Below, in pieces: positions 25,672 through 41,498 of a stretch of 64,000 nt of DNA. Both the position numbers and the translations under genes were made by a program. Source of the DNA: an uncultured Planctomycetales bacterium. Its GTDB lineage: Bacteria; Planctomycetota; UBA1135. The stretch spans positions 315,113 through 379,112 of the forward strand of contig CAYFGE010000001.1 of the NCBI GenBank assembly GCA_964342475.1. The letters are read 5' to 3'. The notes below the pieces were generated by a model. The model worked only from the letters and a program-made list of their open reading frames with translations, did no database searches and was not told where the DNA came from. Position 1 is the first letter of the stretch, and each line of letters begins with the position of its first letter.

Positions 25672-26043
25672 GTGTCGCACCGCCTCCATGTCCTCGTGGC
25701 CGTCCTGCTGCTGCTCCTGCCGAGCGGCGCGCAGGCCTGGGCCGCGGCGTCGCCCTGCGATCCCAGCGCCTGCTGCTGCGAGGTGCCCGAGCCCAGCCCG
25801 GGCCCGGCGGTGACCCGCGGCTGCTGCTGCGAGGCCCGGCCCGCGCCGGCCCTGCCCTTCGAGGCGCCCGCCCCCGAGCGCGCGCCCTCCGCCGGCCCCG
25901 AGCTGCCCGAGCTCGAGGCCTGCCCTGCCGCGGCCCTCCCCCTCGCCGCTCCTGTCCGACCCGTGGCCCGCGTCCTGCGCTCCCCCGCGCCGCGACCGCC
26001 ACCCCGGCCGCTGTTCCTGCTGCACGCCGCCTTCCTCTGCTGA
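25672..26043 (+). CDS. Small secreted Cys/Pro-rich protein with two CCCE motifs (unknown family)
   Basis: 123-aa ORF with near-uniform G/C at codon position 3. Signal peptide MSHRLHVLVAVLLLLLPSGAQA, then SPCDPSACCCEVPEPSPGPAVTRGCCCEARP, ending ...LFLLHAAFLC. It lies 89 nt upstream of the efflux OMF gene on the same strand. Confidence 0.55.
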   Translation: MSHRLHVLVAVLLLLLPSGAQAWAAASPCDPSACCCEVPEPSPGPAVTRGCCCEARPAPALPFEAPAPERAPSAGPELPELEACPAAALPLAAPVRPVARVLRSPAPRPPPRPLFLLHAAFLC

Positions 26044-26132: not shown

Positions 26133-27473
26133 ATGGAACACCGATCCTGGCTCGCCGCCGCGCTGCTCGTCGCGTGCGGCTGCAGCGCCCCGCCCCCGCC
26201 GCTCTTCCAGCAGCGGCTGGACGAGGCCGACGCGCGCGCCGCCGCCTTCCTGCCGCCCGCGGAACCCGTCCCGCTCTCCGCCGCCCCCGACCTCGCCGAG
26301 CTGTGGGCCGCCGCCCAGCGCGGGAACCCCGGCCTGCGCGCCGCCTACCACCGCTGGCGCGCCGAGCTCGAGGCCGCCGGCGGCGCGGGCGAGCTGCCCC
26401 AGCCGCGCCTCGGCATCGGCGCCTTCCTGTCCGCCGTCGAGACCCGCAGCGGGCCGATGCGCGGCCGGATCGGGCTGAGCCAGGCCCTGCCCTGGTTCGG
26501 CACGACCGCCGCGGCGCAGGACCGCGCCCTGGCCGCCGCTGAAGCCGCGCGCGAGGACTTCGAGGCCGCGCGCACCGCGCTGCGCGCCGAGCTGGCCCAC
26601 GCCTGGCTGGAGCTGCACGACCTGCAGCGGACCCTGGAGACGACCCGCGCCCACCGCGAGCTGCTCGTCCACCTCGAGGCCGTCTCGCGCGTGCGTTACG
26701 AGAGCGGCAGCGGCGGCCACGGCGACCTGATCCGGGCCCAGGTCGAGCTGGCCCAGCTCGAGGACCGCCTGGCCGAGCTCGAGGACCTGCGCGCGCCCTC
26801 CGTGGCGCGCCTCGAGGCCCTCCTGGGGCGCCCGGCCGGCGAACCCCTGCCGTGGCCGGCGGACGAGCTCCCGGCCTCTCCTGGGCTCCCGGAGGGCCTG
26901 GAGAGCGGCCTCGCGCAGAGCCACCCCGGCCTGCGCGCCCTCGCCGCCCGCGCCGAGGCCGCCCGCCACGGCGTGGTCCTGGCCGAGAAGGCCTACCACC
27001 CCGCCTGGACGGTGGGCGCCGAATGGACCTGGATCGGCGAGGCCGACGACCCGGCCATGCCCGACTCCGGCAAGGACGCGGTGGCCCTGACCCTGGGGGT
27101 CGAGCTGCCGCTTCGCCGGGGACGCCTCGACGCCGGCCTCGCCGCGGCCCGCGCGCGCGAGGCCGAGACCGCCGACCGGGCGGCCGACCTCGAGCGCCGC
27201 CTCGGCGCCGAACTGGCGCTGGTCCGCCACCGCCACCGGGACGCCGCCCGCCGCGTCGCCCTCTACCGCGAGGGCCTGGTCGCCAAGAGCGAAGAGGCCT
27301 TCGAGACCACGCTCACCGGCTACCAAGCGGCCACCGCCCCCTTCGACTCGGTGATCGACGCCGCGCGCCACCTGCTCGAGTTCCAGCTCGCCCAGGCCCA
27401 CGCCGAGATCGACCTCGTGCAGGCCGCGGTCGACGCCGAACGCGCCACCGGCCTCGTCCTCCTGCCCTTCTGA
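26133..27473 (+). CDS. Outer-membrane efflux factor (TolC/CusC/CzcC family), lipoprotein
   Basis: 446 aa. Lipobox-like LLVACGCS, then ...LAELWAAAQRGNPGLRAAYHRWRAELEAAG... and two OEP repeats. An AGAGGAA SD lies upstream. Confidence 0.85.
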   Translation: MEHRSWLAAALLVACGCSAPPPPLFQQRLDEADARAAAFLPPAEPVPLSAAPDLAELWAAAQRGNPGLRAAYHRWRAELEAAGGAGELPQPRLGIGAFLSAVETRSGPMRGRIGLSQALPWFGTTAAAQDRALAAAEAAREDFEAARTALRAELAHAWLELHDLQRTLETTRAHRELLVHLEAVSRVRYESGSGGHGDLIRAQVELAQLEDRLAELEDLRAPSVARLEALLGRPAGEPLPWPADELPASPGLPEGLESGLAQSHPGLRALAARAEAARHGVVLAEKAYHPAWTVGAEWTWIGEADDPAMPDSGKDAVALTLGVELPLRRGRLDAGLAAARAREAETADRAADLERRLGAELALVRHRHRDAARRVALYREGLVAKSEEAFETTLTGYQAATAPFDSVIDAARHLLEFQLAQAHAEIDLVQAAVDAERATGLVLLPF

Positions 27474-27478
27474 CGACC

Positions 27479-29401
27479 ATGCGCCTCACGCCCACCCGCG
27501 CCGTCCTCCTCGCTCTGCTCCTCCTCGCCCTCGGCTGGGGCCTCGGCCACCGCGCCGCCGCGCCCGCGCCCGCGCCCGCGCCGGACGCCGCCTCGGAGCA
27601 GACGGCCAGCGCCGAGCCGACGATCTGGACCTGCTCCATGCACCCCTCGGTGAAGCTGCCCGCGCCGGGGCAGTGCCCGATCTGCTTCATGGACCTGATC
27701 CCGCTGGTCGAGGACCCCTCCGCCGGCGCGCATCCCACCCGCGTGCGCCTCTCGGCCGGCGCCGCCGCCCTGGCCGGCATCCGCACCGCCGAGGTCGCGC
27801 GGCTCGACGTCGCCCACGAGCGCACCCTCTCGGGCAAGGTGGCCCTCGACGAGACCCGCGTGGCGACGATCACCACCTGGGTGCCGGGCCGCCTCGAGCG
27901 CCTCTACGTCGACTTCACCGGCGTGCGCGTGCGCCCCGGCGACCACCTGGTCGAGCTCTACAGCCCGCAGCTCTACGCGGCGCAGCAGGAGCTCAAGCAG
28001 GCGCGCGCCGCCGCCGCCCGCCTGACCGGGGCGAGCGGCAGCCTGGGGAGGGTGAGCGACGCGACGGTCGCCGCGGCGCGCAGCAAGCTGCGCCTGCTCG
28101 GGCTCGACGAGGCCCAGGTCGCCGAGATCGAGGCCAGCGGAGAGCTGCTCGAACGGCTCACCCTGCACGCCCCCATCGGCGGCGTGGTGATCGAGAAGCA
28201 GGCCGTCGAGGGGCGCTACGTCGACACCGGCACGCCGATCTACACGATCGCCGACCTGAGCCGCGTGTGGGTCGAGCTGGAGGCCTACGAGACCGACCTG
28301 GCCTGGCTGCGCTACGGCCAGGAAGTCACCTTCCAGGTCGAGGCCTACCCCGGCGAGGTCTTCCACGGCCGCATCGCCTTCGTCGACCCGCTGCTCGACG
28401 ACGCCACGCGCACGGTGCGCGTGCGCCTCAACGTGGCGAACCCGGAGCAGAAGCTGAAGCCCGAGATGTTCGTGCGCGCCACCGTCCGCGCCGAGCTGGG
28501 CGCGGACGGCCGCGTGGTCGACGCCGAGCTGGCCGGGCAGTGGATGTGCCCGATGCACCCCGAGGAGGTCTCCGACGCGCCGGGCGCCTGCGGCTCCTGC
28601 GGCATGGACCTCGTGCCCGCCGCCGAGCTCGGCTTCCGCCCGCGGGCCTCGGCGGAGTTGCCGCTCGTGGTGCCCGCCACCGCGCCGCTGCTGACCGGGC
28701 GCCGCGCGGTGGTCTACGTCGCCGCCGGGACGCCCGAGGAACCGGCCTTCGACGGCCGCGTGGTCAGCCTCGGCCCGCGGGCCGGCGACTGGTACGTGGT
28801 GCTCGACGGCCTCGCGGAGGGCGAGCGCGTGGTGGTGAACGGCGCCTTCAAGCTCGACAGCGAGCTGCAGCTGCAGGGCCGGACCAGCATGATGCACCCG
28901 GGCGAGGAGGAGACCGCGCCGGCACCGGCCGACGCGGTCCCGGCTGCCTTCCAGGAGCAGCTCGGCGCCTTGCTGCCGCACGCCCTGGCCGTCCAGGTGG
29001 CGCTGGCGGCGGACGATCTCGAGGCGGCCCGCGGCCCCGCCAGCGCCCTGGGCGCGGCCCTCGACGCGGTGGCCGACGCGGCCCTGCTCGGGGAGGCCCG
29101 CTCGGCCTGGAACGGCGCCCGCGCCGGCATCGCGCGCGGCGCGGAGGGCTTGGCCGCGGCCGAGGACATCGAGGCGGCGCGCGCCGCCTTCCAGCCGCTG
29201 AGCGACGGCCTGATCGTCGCCCTCGCGCGCTTCGGCTACCGCGGCGGGCCGACCGAGGTCCAGCGCAGCCACTGCCCGATGGCCTTCGACGACCTGGGCG
29301 CGGAGTGGCTGCAGCTGCCCGGCACCCTGGCCAACCCCTACTTCGGCTCCGCCATGCTGCGCTGCGGCACGGACGAGGGCCGCTTCACCGCGGAGCGCTG
29401 A
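27479..29401 (+). CDS. Efflux RND periplasmic adaptor (CusB/CzcB family) with two heavy-metal-binding domains and a DUF3347-like C-terminal domain
   Basis: An internal ATG of track ORF 26852..29401 gives a 640-aa protein. WTCSMHPSVKLPAPGQCPICFMDL is at 27625-27697 and WMCPMHPEEVSDAPGACGSCGMDL at 28541-28612. The C-terminus ends HCPMAFDDLGAEWLQLPGTLANPYFGSAMLRCG. Confidence 0.85.
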   Translation: MRLTPTRAVLLALLLLALGWGLGHRAAAPAPAPAPDAASEQTASAEPTIWTCSMHPSVKLPAPGQCPICFMDLIPLVEDPSAGAHPTRVRLSAGAAALAGIRTAEVARLDVAHERTLSGKVALDETRVATITTWVPGRLERLYVDFTGVRVRPGDHLVELYSPQLYAAQQELKQARAAAARLTGASGSLGRVSDATVAAARSKLRLLGLDEAQVAEIEASGELLERLTLHAPIGGVVIEKQAVEGRYVDTGTPIYTIADLSRVWVELEAYETDLAWLRYGQEVTFQVEAYPGEVFHGRIAFVDPLLDDATRTVRVRLNVANPEQKLKPEMFVRATVRAELGADGRVVDAELAGQWMCPMHPEEVSDAPGACGSCGMDLVPAAELGFRPRASAELPLVVPATAPLLTGRRAVVYVAAGTPEEPAFDGRVVSLGPRAGDWYVVLDGLAEGERVVVNGAFKLDSELQLQGRTSMMHPGEEETAPAPADAVPAAFQEQLGALLPHALAVQVALAADDLEAARGPASALGAALDAVADAALLGEARSAWNGARAGIARGAEGLAAAEDIEAARAAFQPLSDGLIVALARFGYRGGPTEVQRSHCPMAFDDLGAEWLQLPGTLANPYFGSAMLRCGTDEGRFTAER

Positions 29402-29404
29402 GCC

Positions 29405-33061
<3,657 letters not shown>

Positions 33062-33135: not shown

Positions 33136-33885
33136 ATGAACCCGATCCGCCTCCTCGTCGCGGCCCTCGCCCTGGCCGCCCCCCTCGCCGCCCAGGCCGG
33201 CCCGCCCAAGGGCCCGCCGCAGCCGGCCGACCTCGTCGCCCAGACCACCTGCCCCATCTCCGGTGAGGAGCTCACCGGCGGCGAGGGCGAGAAGGAGGTC
33301 GTCTACGAGGGCCAGAAGATCCGCCTGTGCTGCGCCAAGTGCGTCAAGAAGTTCGACGAGTTCCCGGACGCCGTCGTCTACGGCATGTACCGCCAGGGCG
33401 TGAAGCCCGAGAACACGCAGACCACCTGCGTGGTCAGCGGCGAGGAGCTCGGCGACGACTACGAGAGCTTCTGGGTGATGAACAAGGAGCTGCGCGTCTG
33501 CTGCAAGAAGTGCCTGGCCAAGGTCGCCAAGGACCCGGCCGTCTACTTCGACCAGCTGCAGGGCCGCAAGAAGCAGACCCACTGCCCGGTGATGGGCGGC
33601 GAGATCGACCCCGAGGTCTACTCGGTGGTCCAGGGCCAGAAGGTCTACCACTGCTGCCCCGGCTGCGAGGGCAAGATGAAGGCCGACCCGGCCAAGTTCT
33701 TCGCCGCCGAAGCCGCCAAGGGCGTGGTCTTCGAGCCGGCCACGAACATGTGCGTGGTCATGGAGGAGCCCAACGAGGACAAGCTGTGGTGGGTCACCTA
33801 TGAGGGCCGCCGCATCCACTTCTGCTGCCGCAAGTGCGTCGGCCGCTTCGTGAAGGACCCGGCCAAGTACCTGGCGATGATGTGA
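33136..33885 (+). CDS. Secreted protein made of four tandem YHS/TRASH-like Cys-motif repeats
   Basis: 249 aa with signal peptide MNPIRLLVAALALAAPLAAQA. Four units follow the pattern C-x(22-25)-CC-x2-C-x3-[FVM]-x2-[DF]P: QTTCPISGEEL..LCCAKCVKKFDEFP, QTTCVVSGEEL..VCCKKCLAKVAKDP, QTHCPVMGGEI..HCCPGCEGKMKADP and NMCVVMEEP..FCCRKCVGRFVKDP. Confidence 0.75.
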   Translation: MNPIRLLVAALALAAPLAAQAGPPKGPPQPADLVAQTTCPISGEELTGGEGEKEVVYEGQKIRLCCAKCVKKFDEFPDAVVYGMYRQGVKPENTQTTCVVSGEELGDDYESFWVMNKELRVCCKKCLAKVAKDPAVYFDQLQGRKKQTHCPVMGGEIDPEVYSVVQGQKVYHCCPGCEGKMKADPAKFFAAEAAKGVVFEPATNMCVVMEEPNEDKLWWVTYEGRRIHFCCRKCVGRFVKDPAKYLAMM

Positions 33886-33909: not shown

Positions 33910-33936
33910 GAGGGGGAGGCCGCCGGCCTCCCCCTC
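33910..33936. terminator. Bidirectional intrinsic-terminator-like hairpin between convergent genes
   Basis: gagggggaggc-cgccg-gcctccccctc has a perfect 11-bp stem and is followed by tcttcgtt on the plus strand. It lies in the 73-nt gap between the 33885 (+) and 33959 (-) gene ends. Confidence 0.6.
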
Positions 33937-33958: not shown

Positions 33959-34942
33959 TCAGCCCCAGTTGGTCATCGCCGCGCGGATGCGGTGGGCCAG
34001 CGCCACCGCGCGGGCGCCGTCCTCGCCGGTGACCGGGGCCGGGCCGCCGTCCCGCACCGCGGCGGCGAAGGCGGCCAGCTCGGCGCGCAGCGGCTCGTCC
34101 TCGCGCAGCTCGAGCTCCTCGGTGTGCAGCAGGCTCTTGAAGCCCTCCACCGGCTGCGGCGAGGCCGCCGCGGCGCGCACCGCCTCCGGGCTGAAGCCGG
34201 GCGCCTTCTGCACCAGGAGCGCGTAGCGGTCCTGGCTGTCGGCGCTGACGTAGCAGTCGGGGCCGAAGACGCGGAAGCGGCGCATGGGCTTCAGGCTGAG
34301 CCGGCTGGCGGTCAGGTTGGCCACCGTGCCGCCGGGGAAGCGCAGCCGCGCCGAGCAGATGTCCTCGGCGGTCGACAGCACCGTGCCGCCGGTGGCGTCC
34401 ACGCTCTCGACCTCCTCGCCCACCCAGGCCAGCACCAGGTCGAGGTCGTGGATCATCAGGTCGAGGACCACGCCGACGTCGGTGGAGCGGAAGGTGTAGG
34501 GCGCCAGCCGGTGGGCCTCGATGAAGCGCGGGCGGATGCCGAGCTCCATGGCGCGCCGCAGGGCCGGGTTGAAGCGCTCGACGTGGCCGGTGCCGAGGAT
34601 CGCGCCGCCGGCGCGGGCGTCCTCGAGGATGGCGGCGCAGGTCTCCGGGTCGGGCGCGAGGGGCTTCTCGACCAGGCAGGCCACCCCTGCGCGCAGGAAG
34701 TCGCGCGCGCACTCGAGGTGCTTGACCGTCGGAGTGGCGACGACGGCGAAGTCCACCTCGCCGGGCAGCCCGCTGCGGTCGGCCTGCCAGCGGCAGCCGT
34801 ACTTGGCAGCCAGCTCGCGGCCGCGGGCCTCGTCCGGCTCGGCGATGGCGACCAGCTCGACGCCGTCGAGCTCGGCCAGGATGCGGGCGTGGTGCCGGCC
34901 GAGGTGGCCGACGCCGACCACGGCGGCGCGGAGCGGCCGCAC
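33959..34942 (-). CDS. Gfo/Idh/MocA-family NAD-dependent oxidoreductase (GnnA-like candidate)
   Basis: I chose GTG 34942, 2 nt after the lpxA stop, giving VRPLRAAVVGVGHLGRHHARIL... (Rossmann fold). The track ATG at 35053 would overlap lpxA by 109 nt. ...CLVEKPLAP...GHVERFNPA... is typical of the family. Confidence 0.8.
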   Translation of the reverse strand: MRPLRAAVVGVGHLGRHHARILAELDGVELVAIAEPDEARGRELAAKYGCRWQADRSGLPGEVDFAVVATPTVKHLECARDFLRAGVACLVEKPLAPDPETCAAILEDARAGGAILGTGHVERFNPALRRAMELGIRPRFIEAHRLAPYTFRSTDVGVVLDLMIHDLDLVLAWVGEEVESVDATGGTVLSTAEDICSARLRFPGGTVANLTASRLSLKPMRRFRVFGPDCYVSADSQDRYALLVQKAPGFSPEAVRAAAASPQPVEGFKSLLHTEELELREDEPLRAELAAFAAAVRDGGPAPVTGEDGARAVALAHRIRAAMTNWG

Positions 34943-34944
34943 GC

Positions 34945-35766
34945 TCAGGCCTCCGCCTCGGCGGGCGGCCGGCGCAGGGACTCGCGGTAGCGCCCCTGGT
35001 AGCCGCGCTCCATGTCGCGCAGGAAGGAGAGCAGGCGGCTGACCTCCGGGCACCAGTCGCCCTCGGCCTCCATCGCCTGCACCTCGAGCGAGATCGGCTT
35101 CTCCTCGGCGAACAGGCGGCGGAAGGCCTCGCGCAGTTGGTTGACGGCCTCCTCGGTGAAGCCGCGCCGGCGCAGGCCGACCATGTTCACGCCGCGCACG
35201 CGCGCCGGGCTGCCCTCGATGACCATGTAGGGCGGCACGTCCTTCACCACGCGCGCCATGCCCCCCACCATGGCGTTGCAGCCGATGGTGACGAAGTGGT
35301 TGACGGCGGTGCCGCCGCTGACGATGACCTGGCTCTCGATGCGCACGTGGCCCGCGAGCAGGGCGTTGTTGCCGACGATCACGTCGTCCTCGATCACGCA
35401 GTCGTGGGCGACGTGCGAGCAGGCCATGAGCAGGTTGCGGTCGCCGATCGAGGTGATCCAGGAGCCGGCCGCGGTGCCGATGTTGATCGTGACGAACTCG
35501 CGGATCACGTTGCCGTCGCCGATCGACAGGCCGGACTCCTCGCCGGCGTACTTCAGGTCCTGCGGCAGGCCGCCAATCGCGGCCGAGCCCATGAAGCGGT
35601 TGTCCTGGCCGATGTGCGTCTTGCCCTGCACGGTGACGTGCGGGCCCAGCTTGGTGCCGGCGGCGATGCGCACCTTCGGCCCGATGTAGCAGAAGGGCCC
35701 GACGACCACGCTGGAGTCGAGCTCGGCGCCGGGGGCGACGAAGGAGCTGGGGTGGATCTGGGTCAT
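34945..35766 (-). CDS. lpxA: Acyl-ACP--UDP-N-acetylglucosamine O-acyltransferase
   Basis: 273 aa with hexapeptide repeats: MTQIHPSSFVAPGAELDSSVVVGPFCYIGPKVRI...IGDRNLLMACSHVAHDCVIEDDVIVGNN.... Confidence 0.95.
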   Translation of the reverse strand: MTQIHPSSFVAPGAELDSSVVVGPFCYIGPKVRIAAGTKLGPHVTVQGKTHIGQDNRFMGSAAIGGLPQDLKYAGEESGLSIGDGNVIREFVTINIGTAAGSWITSIGDRNLLMACSHVAHDCVIEDDVIVGNNALLAGHVRIESQVIVSGGTAVNHFVTIGCNAMVGGMARVVKDVPPYMVIEGSPARVRGVNMVGLRRRGFTEEAVNQLREAFRRLFAEEKPISLEVQAMEAEGDWCPEVSRLLSFLRDMERGYQGRYRESLRRPPAEAEA

Positions 35767-35767
35767 C

Positions 35768-37057
35768 TCAGACGTCGACCAGGGCGAAGGCCAGCACCGC
35801 CTCGGCGACGGTGCGCAGGCCGACCTTGACCAGGCCGCGCACCTGGCCGCGGTTGCGGTTCAGGCGCAGGGTCTCGACCTCGATGCGCAGCTGGTCGCCG
35901 GGGACGACGGCGCCGCGGAAGCGGACCTTGTCGATCGAGGCCAGGACGGCGACCTTGCCGGTGTGCTCGAGCCGGCGCAGCAGCAGCAGGCCGGCCACCT
36001 GGGCCATCGCCTCGAGCTGCAGCACCCCGGGCATCACCGGGTGGTCGGGCCAGTGGCCCTGGAAGAAGGGCTCGTTGATCGTGACGTTCTTGATCCCGAC
36101 GGCGAAGCGCGTGCCCTCGATCTCGATGACGCGGTCCACCAGCAGGAAGGGATAACGGTGCGGCAGGACGCGGAAGATGTCGCGGATCTCGTAGCCGGTC
36201 TCGCGCGGCTCCTCGATCATCTCCTCGGCCTCCAGCTGGGCGCGCAGCAGGCGCGCCATCTCCTGGTTCAGGGCGTGGCCGCTGCGCGTGGCGATGAAGT
36301 CCGCGTGCAGGTCCGCCCCGACCAGGGCGAGGTCGCCGATCAGGTCGGCGATCTTGTGCCGCGTGGGTTCGCGGTCGATGCGCAGCTCCGGGGCCTCCTC
36401 GCCGCCGAGGACCAGGGTGTTCTCGGCCGTCGCGCCCTTGCCGAAGCCGGCCTCGAGCAGCTTCTCGACCTCCTCGGCGCGGACGAAGGTGCGCGCCGGA
36501 CCGATCTCGGCGGCGAAGTCGCCGCTGGCGCTGTCCCAGGCGACCGGCCGCGAGTCGAGCCCCTCGGGCAGCTCGGGCAGGTAGCGCACGCGCATGCCCT
36601 CCCCGCTCGGGGGCAGCGCGACCAGCTCGCAGTCGCCGTCGCGCACGACCACCGGCTCGCTGAGGTGCAGCACCTTGCGCGGCGCCTTCTGCTCGACGAT
36701 GCCGCCCTTGCGCAGGGCCTCGACGTAGGGGCGCACCGAGCCGTCGAAGCCGGGCAGCTCGTCGCCGTCCACCTGGACGACCAGGTTGTCCACCCGCATG
36801 CCGGCGCAGGCCGCCAGCAGGTGCTCGATCATGCCGATGTCCTGGCCGTCGGTGCGCAGCACGGTGCGGCGCGCCGAGTTGATCAGGTTGCCCGGGGCGG
36901 CGCTGATGTCGGCCGGGTCCTCGAGGTCGGCGCGGCGGAAGACGATCCCGGTGCCGACCGCGGCCGGCTCCAGGCGCAGCACGACCGGCCGCCCCGAGTG
37001 GAGGGCGACACCCTCCAGCTCGACCGCGCTCTTCAGGCTGCGCTGGTTGCGGGCCAT
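35768..37057 (-). CDS. lpxC/fabZ: Bifunctional UDP-3-O-acyl-GlcNAc deacetylase / 3-hydroxyacyl-ACP dehydratase (LpxC-FabZ fusion)
   Basis: 429 aa. The N-terminal half is LpxC (...[17 protein letters not shown]...[12 protein letters not shown]...[12 protein letters not shown]...). The C-terminal half is FabZ ([13 protein letters not shown]...[27 protein letters not shown]). Confidence 0.9.
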
Positions 37058-37099
37058 TCCCCTATTCCACCGCTTTCCGGACGGTCCGGCAACCGGGGC

Positions 37100-37684
37100 T
37101 CAGCCCTGGTTGAGGACCTCCACCACCAGCTCGGTGACGTCGTAGCTCGGGTTGGACCACAACAGGTTGCGGTACTGCAGGGCCTCGAGGGCGGCGGCGG
37201 GCTGCTGGAGGAGCTCCGGGTCGAGGTCCTTGGGGATGACCATCACCGCGCCGAAGCCCTCGCGGGCGCCGACCCGGGAGGCCGCCTTCTGCACCATGGT
37301 CCAGGTGCGGACCAGGAGCTGGCTCTCGGCGTTCTGCAGCTGCTGCCGCGCGAAGTCCATGTCCGAGCGCAGGCGCTGCAGGTCGGCCTCGATGGCGTGC
37401 GCCTCGGCGGCGTAGGCCTCGGAGGCCGGGTCCATCACGCGCATCTCGTCGCGGCGGCCCTGCAGGGCGGTCTCGCGGGCGCTGAAGGCCTTCTGGAAGT
37501 CGGTGGCGCGCTGGTTGATCGCGCCCAGCTCCTTCTGGGCGGCCTGGTAGGTGTCGAGGCAGCGCTGCAGGTCGACGTAGCGCACGCCCGGATCCGGGTC
37601 CTGGGCGCTGCGGTCGGCGAGGAGGGCGCCGGCGCCGAGCAGGGCGGCGGCCAGGGCCAGGGTCGGGAGTGCGGGGAGTCTCAT
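37100..37684 (-). CDS. skp: OmpH/Skp-family periplasmic chaperone
   Basis: An internal ATG of track ORF 37100..39940 gives 194 aa: a signal peptide MRLPALPTLALAAALLGAGA followed by a long coiled-coil. It sits between bamA and the lpx genes, and its start shares 1 nt with the bamA stop. Confidence 0.7.
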   Translation of the reverse strand: MRLPALPTLALAAALLGAGALLADRSAQDPDPGVRYVDLQRCLDTYQAAQKELGAINQRATDFQKAFSARETALQGRRDEMRVMDPASEAYAAEAHAIEADLQRLRSDMDFARQQLQNAESQLLVRTWTMVQKAASRVGAREGFGAVMVIPKDLDPELLQQPAAALEALQYRNLLWSNPSYDVTELVVEVLNQG

Positions 37685-40158
37685 CAGAAGTTGCCGAAGG
37701 TGAAGCTGAACACGCGCTCGTCGTCGAAGGGCTCGCTGCGGACGGGCCAGCCGAAGTCGAGGGCGAGCGGCATGGTGGGCATGAAGGGGATCCGGATGCG
37801 GATGCCGAAGCCGGCGGCCACGCGGGCCGGCCCCAGCTCGGAGTAGTGCGGACCGACCGCGCCGGCGTCCACCCACAGCGCGCCGCGCACGTACTCGACC
37901 TCGGCCACGGCGTCGCGCACGCGGGTCGAGACCAGCGGCACGCGCAGCTCGAGACTGCCGTTCCACGCGGCCTCGCCGCCCAGCGGGTAGAGGCCGTCGC
38001 GCGGGCCCACGCCGCGGAAGTCGAAGCCGCGCAGCGTCGAGTGGCCGCCGAGGAACAGGCGCTCGGAGTAGGGCACCCGGCTCAGGTCGCCGAACTCGCG
38101 CTGGTGGCGCAGGCGGCCGGAGAAGGCCAGCACGTACTTGCGGTCGAGCGAGTCGGTCCACACCGGCAGGTACTTCTCGAAGGAGAGGTCGGTGGTGTGG
38201 AAGTCCCAGTCGCCGCCGAAGATGCCGCCCGCCCGCGAGTAGGAAAGGCGCACGCCGCCGCCGTCGATCGGCGAGAAGGCGTCCTCGACGGTGTTGTAGC
38301 TGGCGCCGACGGTGAGCGAGTTGTAGTCGTTCGTGCCCTCGATCTCCTGCACCAGGGCGGGCGCGCCGGTGGCGAGGTCGGCCACCTCGACGGTGGTCAG
38401 GCTGGGCGACACCCACAGGTGGGTGAAGCGGCCGAAGGTGCGGCCGAGCGAGAAGTTGCCGCCGGTGCGGGTCTCCTCGTGCGTGTCGAGGAAGAAGTAG
38501 CTCTTGAACAGGCCGAGGTTGAAGGGCCAGCGGTCGATGTGGTCGCCGAACAGGTCCGGCTCGCTGAAGTCGATGCGGTACTGGCTGAACTGCGTGCCGG
38601 GCGCCAGGAACAGGCGCAGGTTCTGGCCGCCGCCGGTGAAGGCGCGGCCGTCGAGGATCTCGCTCCAGGCGTCCCCCAGCGAGCTCGGCGTGTCGAACAG
38701 GTCGAAGTTGTCCTTCTGCAGGCTGACCGAGACGAAGGGCCCGGTGCTGGAGTTCAGGCCGCCGCCGAACAGCATGCGCCCGGTCTGGCCCTCGGCGACC
38801 TCGAACTGCAGGTCCACCATGCCGGGGTCGTCGGTCTCGAGGAACTTCCAGTCGACGAAGGGCGCGCGGGTCTCCGGGTCCTGGAACCAGCCCTTGCCCA
38901 TCAGGCGGCGCCACGAGCGCATCGCCTCGTCGCCGTCGGCCAGCATGCCGGGCTCGAGGCTGATCTCGCGCCGGATCACGCGGTCCTGGGTCTGGGTGTT
39001 GCCCAGGACGAGGACGTCGCGCACGTGCATCCGCCGGCCCTCGCGGATGCGGTAGACCACGTCGACCTGGTGCGCCTCGGTGTCGACGGTGAGCTGGGGC
39101 TCGCCGCCGTTGGCCGGGTTGAAGGCGAAGAAGCTGCCCTGGCCGGCGTAGCCGCGCGCGGCGGCGGGGTGACCCAGGCGCCCGTAGTACTTGCGCAGGG
39201 CGGCCTCGTCGGCGGCGACGCGCGCCCTCTCGTAGGCCTGCCCGGGCTGCAGCCCGACCTCGGCCAGCAGCTCGGCCTCGGGGTACTCGAGCTCGCCCTC
39301 GGCCGCCACCACGCGCACGCTGCGCACGGTGTAGAGCGGCCCCTCGTCGACGGCGAAGGTCAGCGCCACGCGCTTGCCGTCGCGGTAGAACTCCTCGCGC
39401 GCCAGCTCGACGCGGGCGTCGAGGTAGCCGTAGTCGCGGTAGAGCTGCTCGAGCGCGACGACGTCGCGCTGCACCATGCCCTCGACGTACTTCGAACCGG
39501 GAAAGATGAACCAGCCGTCGCCGGCCTCGATCTCGCCGGAGAGGCTGGCCCCCACCCCGAAGAGGGTGCGCGAGGGCAGCGCCTCGTTGCCCTCGAACTC
39601 GACCTCGCCGACGCGCACCAGCGGCCCCTCGGTGACCACGATGCGCACCTCGTTGCGCTCTTCCACGGTCTCGGCGCGGGCGCTGGCGAAGTGGTAGCCC
39701 TCGCGGCGGTAGTGGGCTTCGACGTCGCCGAGGATGGCCGGGATGCGGGCCGGGTCGACCGCCTGCGCGCCGGTCAGGCCGGCGGCCAGCAGCAGGTCCT
39801 CGCGCTCGAACTCCTCCACCCCGAGGAAGACCACGCGCCGGAAGGCGGCCACCGGCTCGACCTTGAGCACCAGCCGCGCCCCGCCGCTCGGCAGCTGGTA
39901 CAGCTCGTACTCGAGCAGGCGGATGCGCATCGGGCTCCACAGGAACTCCCAGTCGCGCTGCAGGCCGTTGGGCGAGAAGGGCTTGCCGACCTTCGTGCGC
40001 AGGGCGGCGAGGATCTCCGCCTCGCGCCCGGGCGCGCCCTGGATCTCGATCTGCTCCACCACCAGCTGCTGCTGCGGGGCCGCCTCCTGCGGGGCGGCGG
40101 CGTGGACGGCGGCGGCTGGACCGAGGGCCAGGAGGAGGAAGAGGATTCGCGGGAGCAT
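37684..40158 (-). CDS. bamA: Outer membrane protein assembly factor BamA
   Basis: An internal ATG of track ORF 37684..41445 gives 824 aa: signal peptide, POTRA-like repeats (VEQIEIQGAP..., VGEVEFEGNEALP...) and a C-terminal beta-barrel ending ...FSFTFGNF. Confidence 0.9.
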   Translation of the reverse strand: MLPRILFLLLALGPAAAVHAAAPQEAAPQQQLVVEQIEIQGAPGREAEILAALRTKVGKPFSPNGLQRDWEFLWSPMRIRLLEYELYQLPSGGARLVLKVEPVAAFRRVVFLGVEEFEREDLLLAAGLTGAQAVDPARIPAILGDVEAHYRREGYHFASARAETVEERNEVRIVVTEGPLVRVGEVEFEGNEALPSRTLFGVGASLSGEIEAGDGWFIFPGSKYVEGMVQRDVVALEQLYRDYGYLDARVELAREEFYRDGKRVALTFAVDEGPLYTVRSVRVVAAEGELEYPEAELLAEVGLQPGQAYERARVAADEAALRKYYGRLGHPAAARGYAGQGSFFAFNPANGGEPQLTVDTEAHQVDVVYRIREGRRMHVRDVLVLGNTQTQDRVIRREISLEPGMLADGDEAMRSWRRLMGKGWFQDPETRAPFVDWKFLETDDPGMVDLQFEVAEGQTGRMLFGGGLNSSTGPFVSVSLQKDNFDLFDTPSSLGDAWSEILDGRAFTGGGQNLRLFLAPGTQFSQYRIDFSEPDLFGDHIDRWPFNLGLFKSYFFLDTHEETRTGGNFSLGRTFGRFTHLWVSPSLTTVEVADLATGAPALVQEIEGTNDYNSLTVGASYNTVEDAFSPIDGGGVRLSYSRAGGIFGGDWDFHTTDLSFEKYLPVWTDSLDRKYVLAFSGRLRHQREFGDLSRVPYSERLFLGGHSTLRGFDFRGVGPRDGLYPLGGEAAWNGSLELRVPLVSTRVRDAVAEVEYVRGALWVDAGAVGPHYSELGPARVAAGFGIRIRIPFMPTMPLALDFGWPVRSEPFDDERVFSFTFGNF

Positions 40159-40169
40159 GCGGGGAGGGG

Positions 40170-41498
40170 TCAGAGGCCGGAGTCGCGGACGAAGTTCTCG
40201 AAGCGCATCAGCTCCTTGGTGAAGCGGAGCTGCACGTCGCCCGTCGGGCCGTTGCGGTTCTTCGCCACGATGACGTCGGCGATGCCGGCGCGCTCGGAGT
40301 CCTTCTGGTAGTACTCCTCGCGGTAGAGCATCATGACCAGGTCGGCGTCCTGCTCGATCGCGCCCGACTCGCGCAGGTCGGAGAGCATCGGCCGGTGGTC
40401 GGAGCGGTCCTCGGCCTTCCGGTTGAGCTGGGCCAGGGCCAGCACCGGGAGCTTGAGGTCGCGGGCCAGCGCCTTGAGGGCCCGCGAGATGATCGAGATC
40501 TCCACCTGGCGGCTCTCGGCGCGCGGCACGGTGAGCAGCTGGAGGTAGTCGATGACGATCAGCGACAGGCCGCCCTCGCGCTTGAGGCGGCGCGCCTTGG
40601 CGCGGATCTCGGCCAGCGTCGGCTGCGAGCTGTCGTCGATGTAGATCGGCGCGCGCTCGAAGGAGTCGCCGGAGAACACGATGCGCTTGCGATCGGTCTG
40701 GTCCAGCTTGCCGGTGCGCAGCGCGTCGTGGCGCACCTTGGCGTGCGAGGACAGCATCCGCATCACGATCTGGTCGGCCGGCATCTCGAGCGAGAACAGC
40801 AGCACCGGCTGCTGGTAGTCGAGGGCCACGCGCTCGACGATGTTCAGCGCGAAGGCGGTCTTGCCCATCGAGGGGCGCGCGGCGAGCACCACGAGGTCGC
40901 CCGGGCGGAAGCCCTGGCGCTCGTCGAGGTCGATGTAGCCGGTCTGCAGGCCGGCCGGCGCGCCGTCGGCGTTGAGGATGCGCTCGAGGCTCTTGTGGAC
41001 CAGGTCCTTGGTCGAGAACAGCTGGCCCTCGACCAGCCGGTCGCCGACCCCGAAGACCTCCTGCTCGGCCGAGTCGAGCAGGGCGCGGACGTCCTCGCTG
41101 CCCTCGTAGACGTCGCGCTGGATGCGCTCGGCCGCCTCGAGCAGGTTGCGCCGGATCGACAGGTCGCGGACGATGTCGATGTGGTTCTCGAGGAAGGCCA
41201 GCGAGGGCACCGAGAGCATCAGTTCCTCGAGGTAGGCGCGGCCGCCGGTCTCCTCCGCCCCGCTGACGCGGTCGATCTCGTGGCCGACCGTGACCGGGTC
41301 GCAGGCGCCGGGGCGCGCGGCCTCGAGCCGCTCGAACAGCGCGAACAGCGCGCGGTGCCGCGGCAGGTAGAAGTCCTCGCGGTCCAGCTTCGCCGACACC
41401 TCGGTGGCGCAGCGCGGATCGCGCAGAATGCTCCCCAGCACGCACTTCTCGGCCTCGAGATCGAAGGGCCGCGTCTTCTGCTGCTGCTGGACTTCCAT
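40170..41498 (-). CDS. dnaB: Replicative DNA helicase
   Basis: 442 aa with PFDLEAEKCVLGSIL..., the Walker A motif ARPSMGKTAFAL, and ...IDYLQLL.... Confidence 0.95.
   Translation of the reverse strand: MEVQQQQKTRPFDLEAEKCVLGSILRDPRCATEVSAKLDREDFYLPRHRALFALFERLEAARPGACDPVTVGHEIDRVSGAEETGGRAYLEELMLSVPSLAFLENHIDIVRDLSIRRNLLEAAERIQRDVYEGSEDVRALLDSAEQEVFGVGDRLVEGQLFSTKDLVHKSLERILNADGAPAGLQTGYIDLDERQGFRPGDLVVLAARPSMGKTAFALNIVERVALDYQQPVLLFSLEMPADQIVMRMLSSHAKVRHDALRTGKLDQTDRKRIVFSGDSFERAPIYIDDSSQPTLAEIRAKARRLKREGGLSLIVIDYLQLLTVPRAESRQVEISIISRALKALARDLKLPVLALAQLNRKAEDRSDHRPMLSDLRESGAIEQDADLVMMLYREEYYQKDSERAGIADVIVAKNRNGPTGDVQLRFTKELMRFENFVRDSGL

Follow-up and report, generated by a model that had tools for sequence, protein, structure and literature searches.

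A putative efflux operon of an uncultured Planctomycetales bacterium appears to end with a gene for a small, exported protein that consists of four cysteine-rich repeats. The gene lies within a 64,000-nucleotide stretch of contig CAYFGE010000001.1 (assembly GCA_964342475.1), referred to below as the window, directly downstream of genes for a CusCBA-type pump. The interpretation favored here, at a probability of roughly 55%, is that the repeat protein binds Cu(I)/Ag(I) through thiolates in the periplasm as an accessory of that pump and is a nonhomologous functional counterpart of CusF. The evidence for it comes from retention of a four-Cys pattern across a large family of YHS/TRASH proteins, linkage of the repeat gene to pump genes in several phyla, and fusion of the same repeat to CusB in related loci.

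A four-repeat cysteine protein

The repeat gene is the longest open reading frame (ORF) in its own reading frame, and its G+C content at third codon positions (GC3) of 0.99 is like that of neighboring genes in a window with 74% GC. The gene and its parts are as follows.

33136..33885, + strand: gene for the four-repeat exported protein, 249 amino acids (aa), 16 Cys, YHS/TRASH-type repeats
33136..33198, + strand: putative Sec signal peptide, residues 1 to 21, ending in AQA before G, judged from sequence alone
33241..33417, + strand: repeat 1, Q36-N94; Cys 39, 65, 66, and 69; YHS, TRASH, and L24e matches below threshold
33418..33573, + strand: repeat 2, Q95-K146; Cys 98, 122, 123, and 126
33574..33741, + strand: repeat 3, Q147-A202; Cys 150, 173, 174, and 177
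33742..33882, + strand: repeat 4, T203-M249; Cys 206, 230, 231, and 234; the only repeat to pass the Pfam YHS cut-off by itself

By eye, the N terminus (MNPIRLLVAALALAAPLAAQA, followed by G) looks like a signal peptide of the Sec/signal peptidase I type, and similar hydrophobic N termini occur in all listed homologues. A Tat substrate or a lipoprotein was ruled out, as the protein has neither an RR motif nor a lipobox Cys. The repeats are 47 to 59 aa long, and no Cys lies outside them. Their spacing is C-x25-CC-x2-C in repeat 1, with x23, x22, and x23 at the same place in repeats 2, 3, and 4, and pairwise identity among them is 32 to 39%, the four Cys and one Pro being invariant. Repeat 3 is the counterpart of the first repeat in widespread two-repeat proteins (QTHCPVMGG...YHCCPxC). 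Many homologues carry His-rich tails beside the repeats (e.g., DHSGHNH and HDHDSHEHG), unlike the window protein, which has none.

The initial annotation of this DNA, made from the letters alone, had described four tandem units behind a signal peptide, each with four Cys and 16 in total; the ORF and the Cys positions and spacing agree, and the unit starts that it gave (33241, 33418, 33574, and 33742) fall exactly on Q36, Q95, Q147, and T203. The consensus frame that it drew for the units holds for the most part, with repeat 4 (TNMCVVMEEP) fitting [QT]-T-x-C-[PV]-[IV]-[SM]-G only loosely and repeat 1 having FPDA in place of the expected DPA. Of two DNA strings said to be shared by the first two repeats, one (cagaccacctgc) is indeed present at both 33241 and 33418, and the other is one base off (ggTgaggagctc versus ggCgaggagctc).

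A profile from 40 repeats, most of them from other proteins (four are the window protein's own), detects four domains in the window protein at E values of 5e-19 to 5e-24. A word-indexed search found 515 homologues at an E value of ≤1e-3. An exhaustive search returned 2,766 clusters (50% identity) at ≤1e-3 and 639 at ≤1e-10, and at least one CC-x2-C is present in all 144 new representatives among the matches listed. All four Cys are kept in 699 of 784 repeats from 265 proteins. The extra Cys alone is missing in 25 of the 784, which mostly have S or G there, like canonical YHS domains, and some degenerate repeats have lost all four Cys jointly (e.g., repeat 2 of homologues P0031, P0035, and P0038). 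Retention of the four-Cys pattern across so large a family indicates that it is not a chance feature, and a chance or spurious ORF was rejected on the basis of the GC3 of 0.99 and the >500 homologues.

A distinct subtype of the YHS/TRASH family

The whole protein exceeds the Pfam cut-offs for YHS (PF04945; 48.3 versus 30.3 bits) and TRASH_HVO_1752_C (35.5 versus 27 bits). When repeats are run singly, as the initial annotation had proposed, repeat 4 passes the YHS cut-off narrowly (30.5 versus 30.3 bits), and repeats 1 to 3 give subthreshold YHS, TRASH, or L24e matches with E values of about 0.01 to 0.03. The protein matches no NCBIfam family, and its homologues are named “hypothetical” or “YHS domain-containing protein” in public sources.

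An AlphaFold2 model built with 42 homologues has a predicted local distance difference test (pLDDT) score of 90.3 and a predicted template modeling (pTM) score of 0.83, with 209 of 249 residues at a pLDDT of ≥90, and represents every repeat as a two-stranded beta-hairpin followed by two helices. A Foldseek comparison with the PDB gave nothing at an E value of ≤1e-3 and no significant whole-chain match, only local matches of single repeats. The best of these, as expected for TRASH/YHS, are L24e/Rlp24 (root mean square deviation of 1.3 to 1.9 Å over 37 to 40 residues; probability up to 0.85) and the phenol and toluene hydroxylase YHS domains (2inn and 1t0q). A PDB sequence search with the whole protein produced chance antibody matches only. 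The 40-repeat profile found the YHS domain of phenol hydroxylase PhN weakly (E value of 0.0024) and Ta0938 at an E value of 0.7. The YHS domain of phenol hydroxylase holds a structural Cys4 Zn site, a precedent for the structural alternative considered below.

The profile alignment places “yfCCkkC...dPakY” over “HFCSDGC...EPEKY” of PhN. The register follows from this alignment. Canonical C-x3-C is made up of the leading Cys of the CC pair together with the final Cys of the repeat, and the trailing Cys of the pair takes the place of Ser in the canonical “FCS”. The lone N-terminal Cys corresponds to the closing Cys of the [D/C]-x2-C knuckle described for canonical domains (PMC4626032). The Asp or Cys expected at the first ligand position is absent; repeats 1 to 3 have Gln and repeat 4 has Thr. 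In the family as a whole, 494 all-Cys repeats have an alignment that extends this far, and 482 of them have Gln there.

The repeats thus share with YHS/TRASH domains (PF04945, PF24273, and PF08394; L24e fold) the hairpin knuckle followed by a helix that starts with C-x3-C, the C...C-x3-C register, and the trailing “DP-x-K-Y” helix. They differ in having Gln for the first Asp/Cys ligand together with a nearly invariant extra Cys, which gives CC-x2-C. The TRASH motif is reportedly C-x19-22-C-x3-C, as put forward by Ettema et al. in 2003. With a spacer of 22 to 25 rather than 19 to 22 residues, three of the four window repeats lie 1 to 3 residues beyond the published range. The window protein also carries four tandem copies and is predicted to be exported, whereas the characterized examples are cytosolic and comprise N termini of Cu-ATPases, archaeal regulators, an adenylyl cyclase, di-iron hydroxylases, and L24e (PMC4626032). 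Taken together, the domain scores, the alignment, and the predicted fold indicate that the repeat protein genuinely belongs to YHS/TRASH and represents a subtype of its own, Q-x2-C...CC-x2-C. A resemblance to these modules had been suggested before and was, if anything, understated. A match to a characterized domain that binds no metal, which would have counted against the initial annotation, was not found; the matches are to YHS/TRASH.

The extra Cys after the third ligand may compensate for the lost Asp/Cys first ligand, which in canonical domains is common but not obligatory (PMC4626032). In the wider family, the TRASH/YHS Cys of L24e ligate Cd2+, an adenylyl cyclase acquires its Cu2+ response through a YHS domain, and the YHS domain of toluene 4-monooxygenase has no metal bound (PMC4626032). 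As a separate observation, two reports count a “YHS domain protein” among the selenoprotein families of sulfate-reducing symbionts (PMC1976440 and PMC9312934), and any YHS-CC member (one with the CC-x2-C repeat) that has UGA in frame where a Cys is expected would escape the ORF-based searches used here.

Linkage to CusCBA-type pumps across phyla

The initial annotation had tied its functional proposal to linkage with heavy-metal efflux resistance-nodulation-division (HME-RND) pumps in other genomes, and this linkage is widespread. Within the genome collection, all nine of the relatives adjoin OEP-CusB-CusA genes. The closest, from uncultured Planctomycetales, have the repeat gene after cusA, with two tandem paralogues in loci L001 and L003, and in Ignavibacteriales and Krumholzibacteriota a two-repeat version sits between the OEP gene and cusB. 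Look-ups of individual homologues agree, in that all partner adaptors have an HMBD and most also have DUF3347.

A metagenome scan covered the best 80 loci by a two-repeat profile, a sample biased to the two-repeat subfamily. Well-flanked loci, defined as having at least 1.5 kb on either side of the repeat gene, number 32 of the 80, and in 26 of these the repeat gene is directly beside a pump component. The order is OEP-YHS-CusB in 22 of the 26. This arrangement of the two-repeat relatives matches the cusF slot in E. coli cusCFBA, which lies between the OEP gene and cusB. Among relatives with three or four Cys-bearing repeats, the gene directly follows cusA in 8 of 10 contexts, counting the window itself and the truncated contig of L003; the cases include L001, L002, L010/L011, L098, L099, and L100. 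Pump linkage spans records labelled Planctomycetota, Ignavibacteriales, Krumholzibacteriota, and Pontiella, with varied gene orders.

CusB fusions and copper context

In four loci, L007 (Pontiella), L009 (Planctomycetota), L081, and L085, the repeat is fused to the C terminus of CusB, and the L085 fusion carries two repeats. Both fusions that were scanned exceed the Pfam YHS cut-off. A comparable arrangement is known from SilB of Cupriavidus metallidurans CH34, whose C-terminal extension is homologous to CusF (PMC4446572). Both are C-terminal chaperone-type modules on an HME-RND adaptor, with an OB barrel in SilB and a YHS/TRASH repeat in the four CusB proteins; in the window the module is a separate gene. 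Together with occupation of the cusF slot by two-repeat relatives, these fusions lend support to the earlier idea that the protein substitutes for CusF.

Neighboring genes of several related loci are associated with copper. The L007 operon begins with a CsoR-family metal-sensing repressor (1e-29), and next to the L010 operon are genes for an HMBD P-type ATPase and two multicopper oxidases. In L073 (10040-11055) and L063 (1389-2404), the gene after the two-repeat gene encodes not a pump component but a periplasmic Cu,Zn superoxide dismutase (SOD; PF00080, 2.1e-48) with a His/Met-rich N terminus, and both loci retain the divergent pair of sigma-54 response regulator and histidine kinase known from pump loci. 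The pairing with Cu,Zn-SOD may point to a function in supplying or buffering copper.

YHS-CC repeats are also found at the C terminus of large planctomycete proteins (P0174, P0176, P0193, P0220, and P0127), some with a PSCyt1 cytochrome c domain and leucine-rich repeats (LRR) and one a 2,065-aa HEAT-repeat protein. Near the cus operon of L009, a 294-aa exported protein (1678-2562) has one YHS-CC repeat followed by several further Cys-rich repeats (e.g., “GTAECCNPDAKKCSECGLNKGSIGCCKD” and “GKCCQPDTQKCSKCSLNKGAPGCCK”), and a Pfam scan of it gave no match. In other lineages, a DUF2231 membrane protein is a recurrent uncharacterized neighbor downstream of the pump genes: it follows cusA in L015 (14468-15331), where it is fused to an N-terminal YHS domain, and follows the YHS-CC gene in L099 (7958-8509).

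The pump operon and the putative acceptor site

The pump genes of the window and the transcription signal downstream of the repeat gene are as follows.

26133..27473, + strand: outer-membrane factor (CusC/TolC-like), the first recognizable pump gene; Pfam OEP PF02321, 1.3e-39; syntenic in relatives
27479..29401, + strand: CusB-like periplasmic adaptor, ATG at 27479, with two Cys-type HMBDs (heavy-metal-binding domains); HlyD_D23 9.3e-73, HMBD PF19335 7.2e-18 (two stretches), DUF3347 9.1e-10
27626..27697, + strand: N-terminal HMBD of CusB, the proposed acceptor site; WTCSMHPSVKLPAPGQCPICFMDL
28541..28612, + strand: second HMBD of CusB; WMCPMHPEEVSDAPGACGSCGMDL
29405..33061, + strand: CusA-type HME-RND permease; TIGR00914 CusA/CzcA, 755.8 bits versus a cut-off of 701.45
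33910..33936, + strand: terminator-like hairpin, 12-bp stem with 10 G-C pairs, then T-rich TCTTCGTTCC; 25 nt past the stop codon of the repeat gene

The adaptor is also above the NCBIfam RND_mfp cut-off. The repeat gene begins 74 nt past cusA on the same strand, and the hairpin after its stop codon (fold dG of -45.7 kcal/mol; z score of -4.7) makes it the likely last gene of the operon.

The window CusA has 39% identity to E. coli CusA and keeps M573, M623, and M672 of the latter as M669, M719, and M808; E567, D617, R83, R669, and D405 of E. coli CusA are also kept. Retention of this periplasmic three-Met site gives the window permease a signature of the Cu(I)/Ag(I) type. Of the six Met in the transmembrane pairs (M410-M501, M403-M486, and M391-M1009), it keeps M1009 alone. 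The window CusA is also longer, at 1,218 aa versus 1,047 aa in E. coli, with relatives at 1,198 to 1,267 aa, and has an insertion at about residues 519 to 650, right after the residue aligned to E. coli M501, which is first Arg-rich and then hydrophobic (RRRRGAARAAP...LVVLAGGLLLA...).

In E. coli, the M21/M36/M38 site of CusB (mature numbering) accepts Cu(I) from CusF (PMC6235853). Residues 44 to 71 of E. coli CusB (L097), a segment which holds these residues as M49/M64/M66, score 47 bits on Pfam HMBD. The N-terminal HMBD of the window CusB (WTCSMHPSVKLPAPGQCPICFMDLIP) gives a gapless alignment with residues 45 to 70 of E. coli CusB (WYDPMYPNTRFDKPGKSPFMDMDLVP; WYDPMYP...SPFMDMDLVP). In the window HMBD, Met is retained at two of the three positions and replaced by Cys at the remaining one, and there are two additional Cys and one His. 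A Cys3-type N-terminal HMBD, TC[ST]MHP...CPxCxM, is present in 49 of 54 CusB-like ORFs from the related loci. E. coli CusB has the Met-type form of this Pfam domain, and the two forms together suggest Met-type and Cys-type versions of one relay.

Directly 5' of the OEP gene lies a small ORF (25672-26043, + strand; 123 aa, GTG start, GC3 of 0.93) with a signal-like N terminus, Cys clusters (“CDPSACCCEV” and “GCCCEA”), a Pro-rich middle, and the C terminus “RPPPRPLFLLHAAFLC”. Its C-terminal half is kept in L002 (1-250, reading frame 2), with the last 16 aa identical, and analogues with CC/CCCC motifs and an “RPPP”/“PPCP” hydrophobic tail precede the OEP gene in L010 (473-874) and L009 (4198-4620). 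It has no match in Pfam or NCBIfam and is absent from Ignavibacteria-type loci. The small ORF may encode one more Cys-rich exported protein that belongs to the cus operons of planctomycetes.

On the other side, convergent with the repeat gene, the − strand carries a block of genes for a GFO/IDH/MocA oxidoreductase, lpxA, an lpxC/fabZ fusion, ompH, bamA, and dnaB (33959-41498), which is kept at about 50% identity in L098 (7150-14108) and L101 (7793-14726). The lpx/bamA linkage was rejected as the meaningful one: it is kept only in the closest lineage, and pump linkage crosses phyla.

A proposed thiolate relay and its relation to known systems

Under the favored interpretation, the repeat protein would be exported by Sec, lose its signal peptide, and fold into four rigidly packed TRASH/YHS treble-clef modules. 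Each module would form a four-thiol cluster, with one Cys contributed by the beta-hairpin knuckle (C-P-[VI]-[SM]-G) and three thiols by CC-x2-C at the start of the first helix, and with Gln at the canonical position of the first Asp/Cys ligand. Cu(I) is bound well by vicinal Cys pairs and by C-x2-C motifs, and the module sites would catch periplasmic Cu(I) and probably Ag(I). Ligand exchange would then hand the metal to the Cys/Met/His-type HMBD at the CusB N terminus, and CusB would load or activate CusA, in which the three-Met site is intact, with exit through the outer-membrane factor. Metal binding by the periplasmic Cys, the identity of the metal as Cu(I)/Ag(I), its stoichiometry, the direction of transfer, and the partner are all inferred from sequence and gene context.

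The likeness to CusF/SilF is one of position and proposed function only. Both are small exported proteins encoded inside a cusCBA-type operon, two-repeat relatives occupy the slot between the outer-membrane factor and cusB, and the proposed acceptor, the N-terminal HMBD of CusB, has as its E. coli homologue the segment to which CusF delivers metal. The repeat protein is not a member of that family, having no match to Pfam CusF_Ec, no tblastn similarity, and a predicted hairpin-plus-helices structure instead of an oligonucleotide/oligosaccharide-binding (OB) fold. Its conserved positions are Cys (with Gln, Pro, and Gly) rather than a Met-x-Met/His/Trp constellation, and there are two to four sites per chain in the repeat family, whereas CusF is a single OB-fold barrel with one Met2-His(-Trp) site (PMC4446572 and PMC6235853).

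The HMBD (PF19335) of CusB and P1B-ATPases is another short Cys-knuckle metal-binding module found in the same operons and the same compartment, and its CP-x-C knuckle has Met/His by Cys, like “HCPVMGG...HCCPMC” of YHS repeats. It is nevertheless a separate Pfam family of 28 residues and is built into the adaptor, not encoded as a protein of its own. CopG is a Cys-based periplasmic copper protein with a thioredoxin-like fold and a CxCC motif and has no TRASH repeats; it shows that copper sites made of Cys are possible in that compartment. SilE and PcoE are also exported multisite accessory proteins of copper/silver resistance loci. SilE is intrinsically disordered and His/Met-based (PMC10407283), and the window protein is predicted to be folded and is Cys-based. 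Within the set of papers searched, none links YHS/TRASH repeats to cus operons or to the periplasm.

Alternative explanations

Several observations weigh against a dedicated CusF counterpart. Linkage to the pump is not universal, as 4 of the 32 well-flanked loci lack a neighboring pump altogether and 2 have one only at a distance, homologue P0057 adjoins a cytochrome c gene, and the pump of L101 is 3 kb away and divergent. Reuse of the YHS-CC module in the large planctomycete proteins implies that it is not pump-specific. In support of a replacement, tblastn with E. coli CusF as the query gave no match in either the window or 96 related loci (L001-L096), but this is a weak test of CusF absence, as it used a single short, divergent query on loci rather than whole genomes. 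Cys sites are odd in an oxidizing periplasm, the known Cus/Sil relay sites being Met/His-based, and the Cys might alternatively form disulfides or hold structural Zn. For members of the subfamily in general, putative metal binding is read from Cys conservation. The four sites per protein and the His-rich tails of relatives, finally, resemble a buffer more than a one-site shuttle.

A role of the last kind, as a periplasmic buffer or sponge for Cu(I)/Ag(I) or for Cd, Hg, or Zn, similar to SilE/PcoE and with no specific hand-off to CusB, is unlikely but deserves serious consideration. Besides the two to four sites in each protein and the His-rich N- or C-terminal tails of many homologues, it would fit the pumpless occurrence beside Cu,Zn-SOD in L073 and L063 and the position of the window gene at the end of the operon rather than between the OEP gene and cusB. 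A physical partnership with the adaptor is instead favored by fusion of the repeat to the C terminus of CusB and by the strict order of OEP, YHS, and CusB in 22 of 32 loci, and a compact predicted fold (pLDDT of 90) contrasts with the intrinsic disorder of SilE (PMC10407283). It is also quite improbable that the repeats are structural Zn ribbons or two-disulfide units of an envelope scaffold or interaction module that carries no transported metal. Precedents are the structural four-Cys site of the L24e TRASH fold and the metal-free YHS domain of toluene 4-monooxygenase (PMC4626032), the repeats do occur in PSCyt1-LRR and HEAT-repeat proteins, and a pTM of 0.83 suggests a rigid, rod-like body. 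A purely structural role, however, leaves unexplained the copper context (cusF slot, CusB fusions, CsoR-family repressor, multicopper oxidases, and SodC) and the co-occurrence with Cys-type HMBDs. It also fails to account for conservation of the extra Cys, although canonical YHS domains fold without one and the 25 repeats lacking it mostly carry S or G in its place.

A thiol redox function, with a thioredoxin-like C-x2-C serving reduction of Cu(II) to Cu(I) for CusA or protection of envelope thiols under copper stress, is very improbable. The second Cys of the CC pair and the last Cys do form a C-x-x-C just before and in the first helix turn, with C-P-G-C in repeat 3, and the YHS-domain selenoproteins (PMC1976440 and PMC9312934) hint at reactive Cys in some YHS proteins. 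The thioredoxin fold is absent, though, the operon has no reductant partner such as DsbD/CcdA, and the canonical C-x3-C register of TRASH accounts for the motif without redox chemistry. The notion of a passenger gene, unrelated to the pump and kept beside it by lineage-specific synteny, draws on the persistence of the gene next to GFO-lpxA-lpxC/fabZ-ompH-bamA-dnaB in the window, L098, and L101, even with the L101 pump inverted 3 kb away. It is scarcely credible and largely refuted by the cross-phylum pump linkage, the differing gene orders, and the fusions, for which inertia of synteny offers no explanation.

Implications for metal efflux

The mechanism of Cus-type pumps is known almost wholly from the Met-based CusF-CusB-CusA relay of E. 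coli, and to our knowledge most cus-like operons outside the Proteobacteria have no recognized chaperone. What would be new in a thiolate-based counterpart of CusF is the combination: the domain family and the kind of accessory role are both familiar, and the role is filled by a nonhomologous and chemically different module. A more general extension of this idea is tentative and somewhat doubtful. Outside the Proteobacteria, an exported CC-x2-C YHS/TRASH chain might stand in for CusF and a Cys-type HMBD for the Met-type N terminus of CusB; Q-x2-C...CC-x2-C might then be a new Cu(I) motif, possibly multinuclear, on a treble-clef scaffold, and the Met-only relay of E. coli an oxidation-resistant derivative of a more general Cys-based design. 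The records behind the extension are labelled Planctomycetota, Ignavibacteriales, Krumholzibacteriota, Zixibacteria, and Pontiella.

A large and only generically annotated family occupies the cusF slot, fuses to CusB, and accompanies Cys-type HMBDs. If its members bind Cu(I)/Ag(I) and deliver it to the pump, a widespread “YHS domain-containing protein” would gain a function, and a Cys-based periplasmic copper site would join a field dominated by Met/His sites. The family would also provide a directly testable nonhomologous replacement inside a metal relay and would improve annotation of metal resistance in environmental metagenomes.

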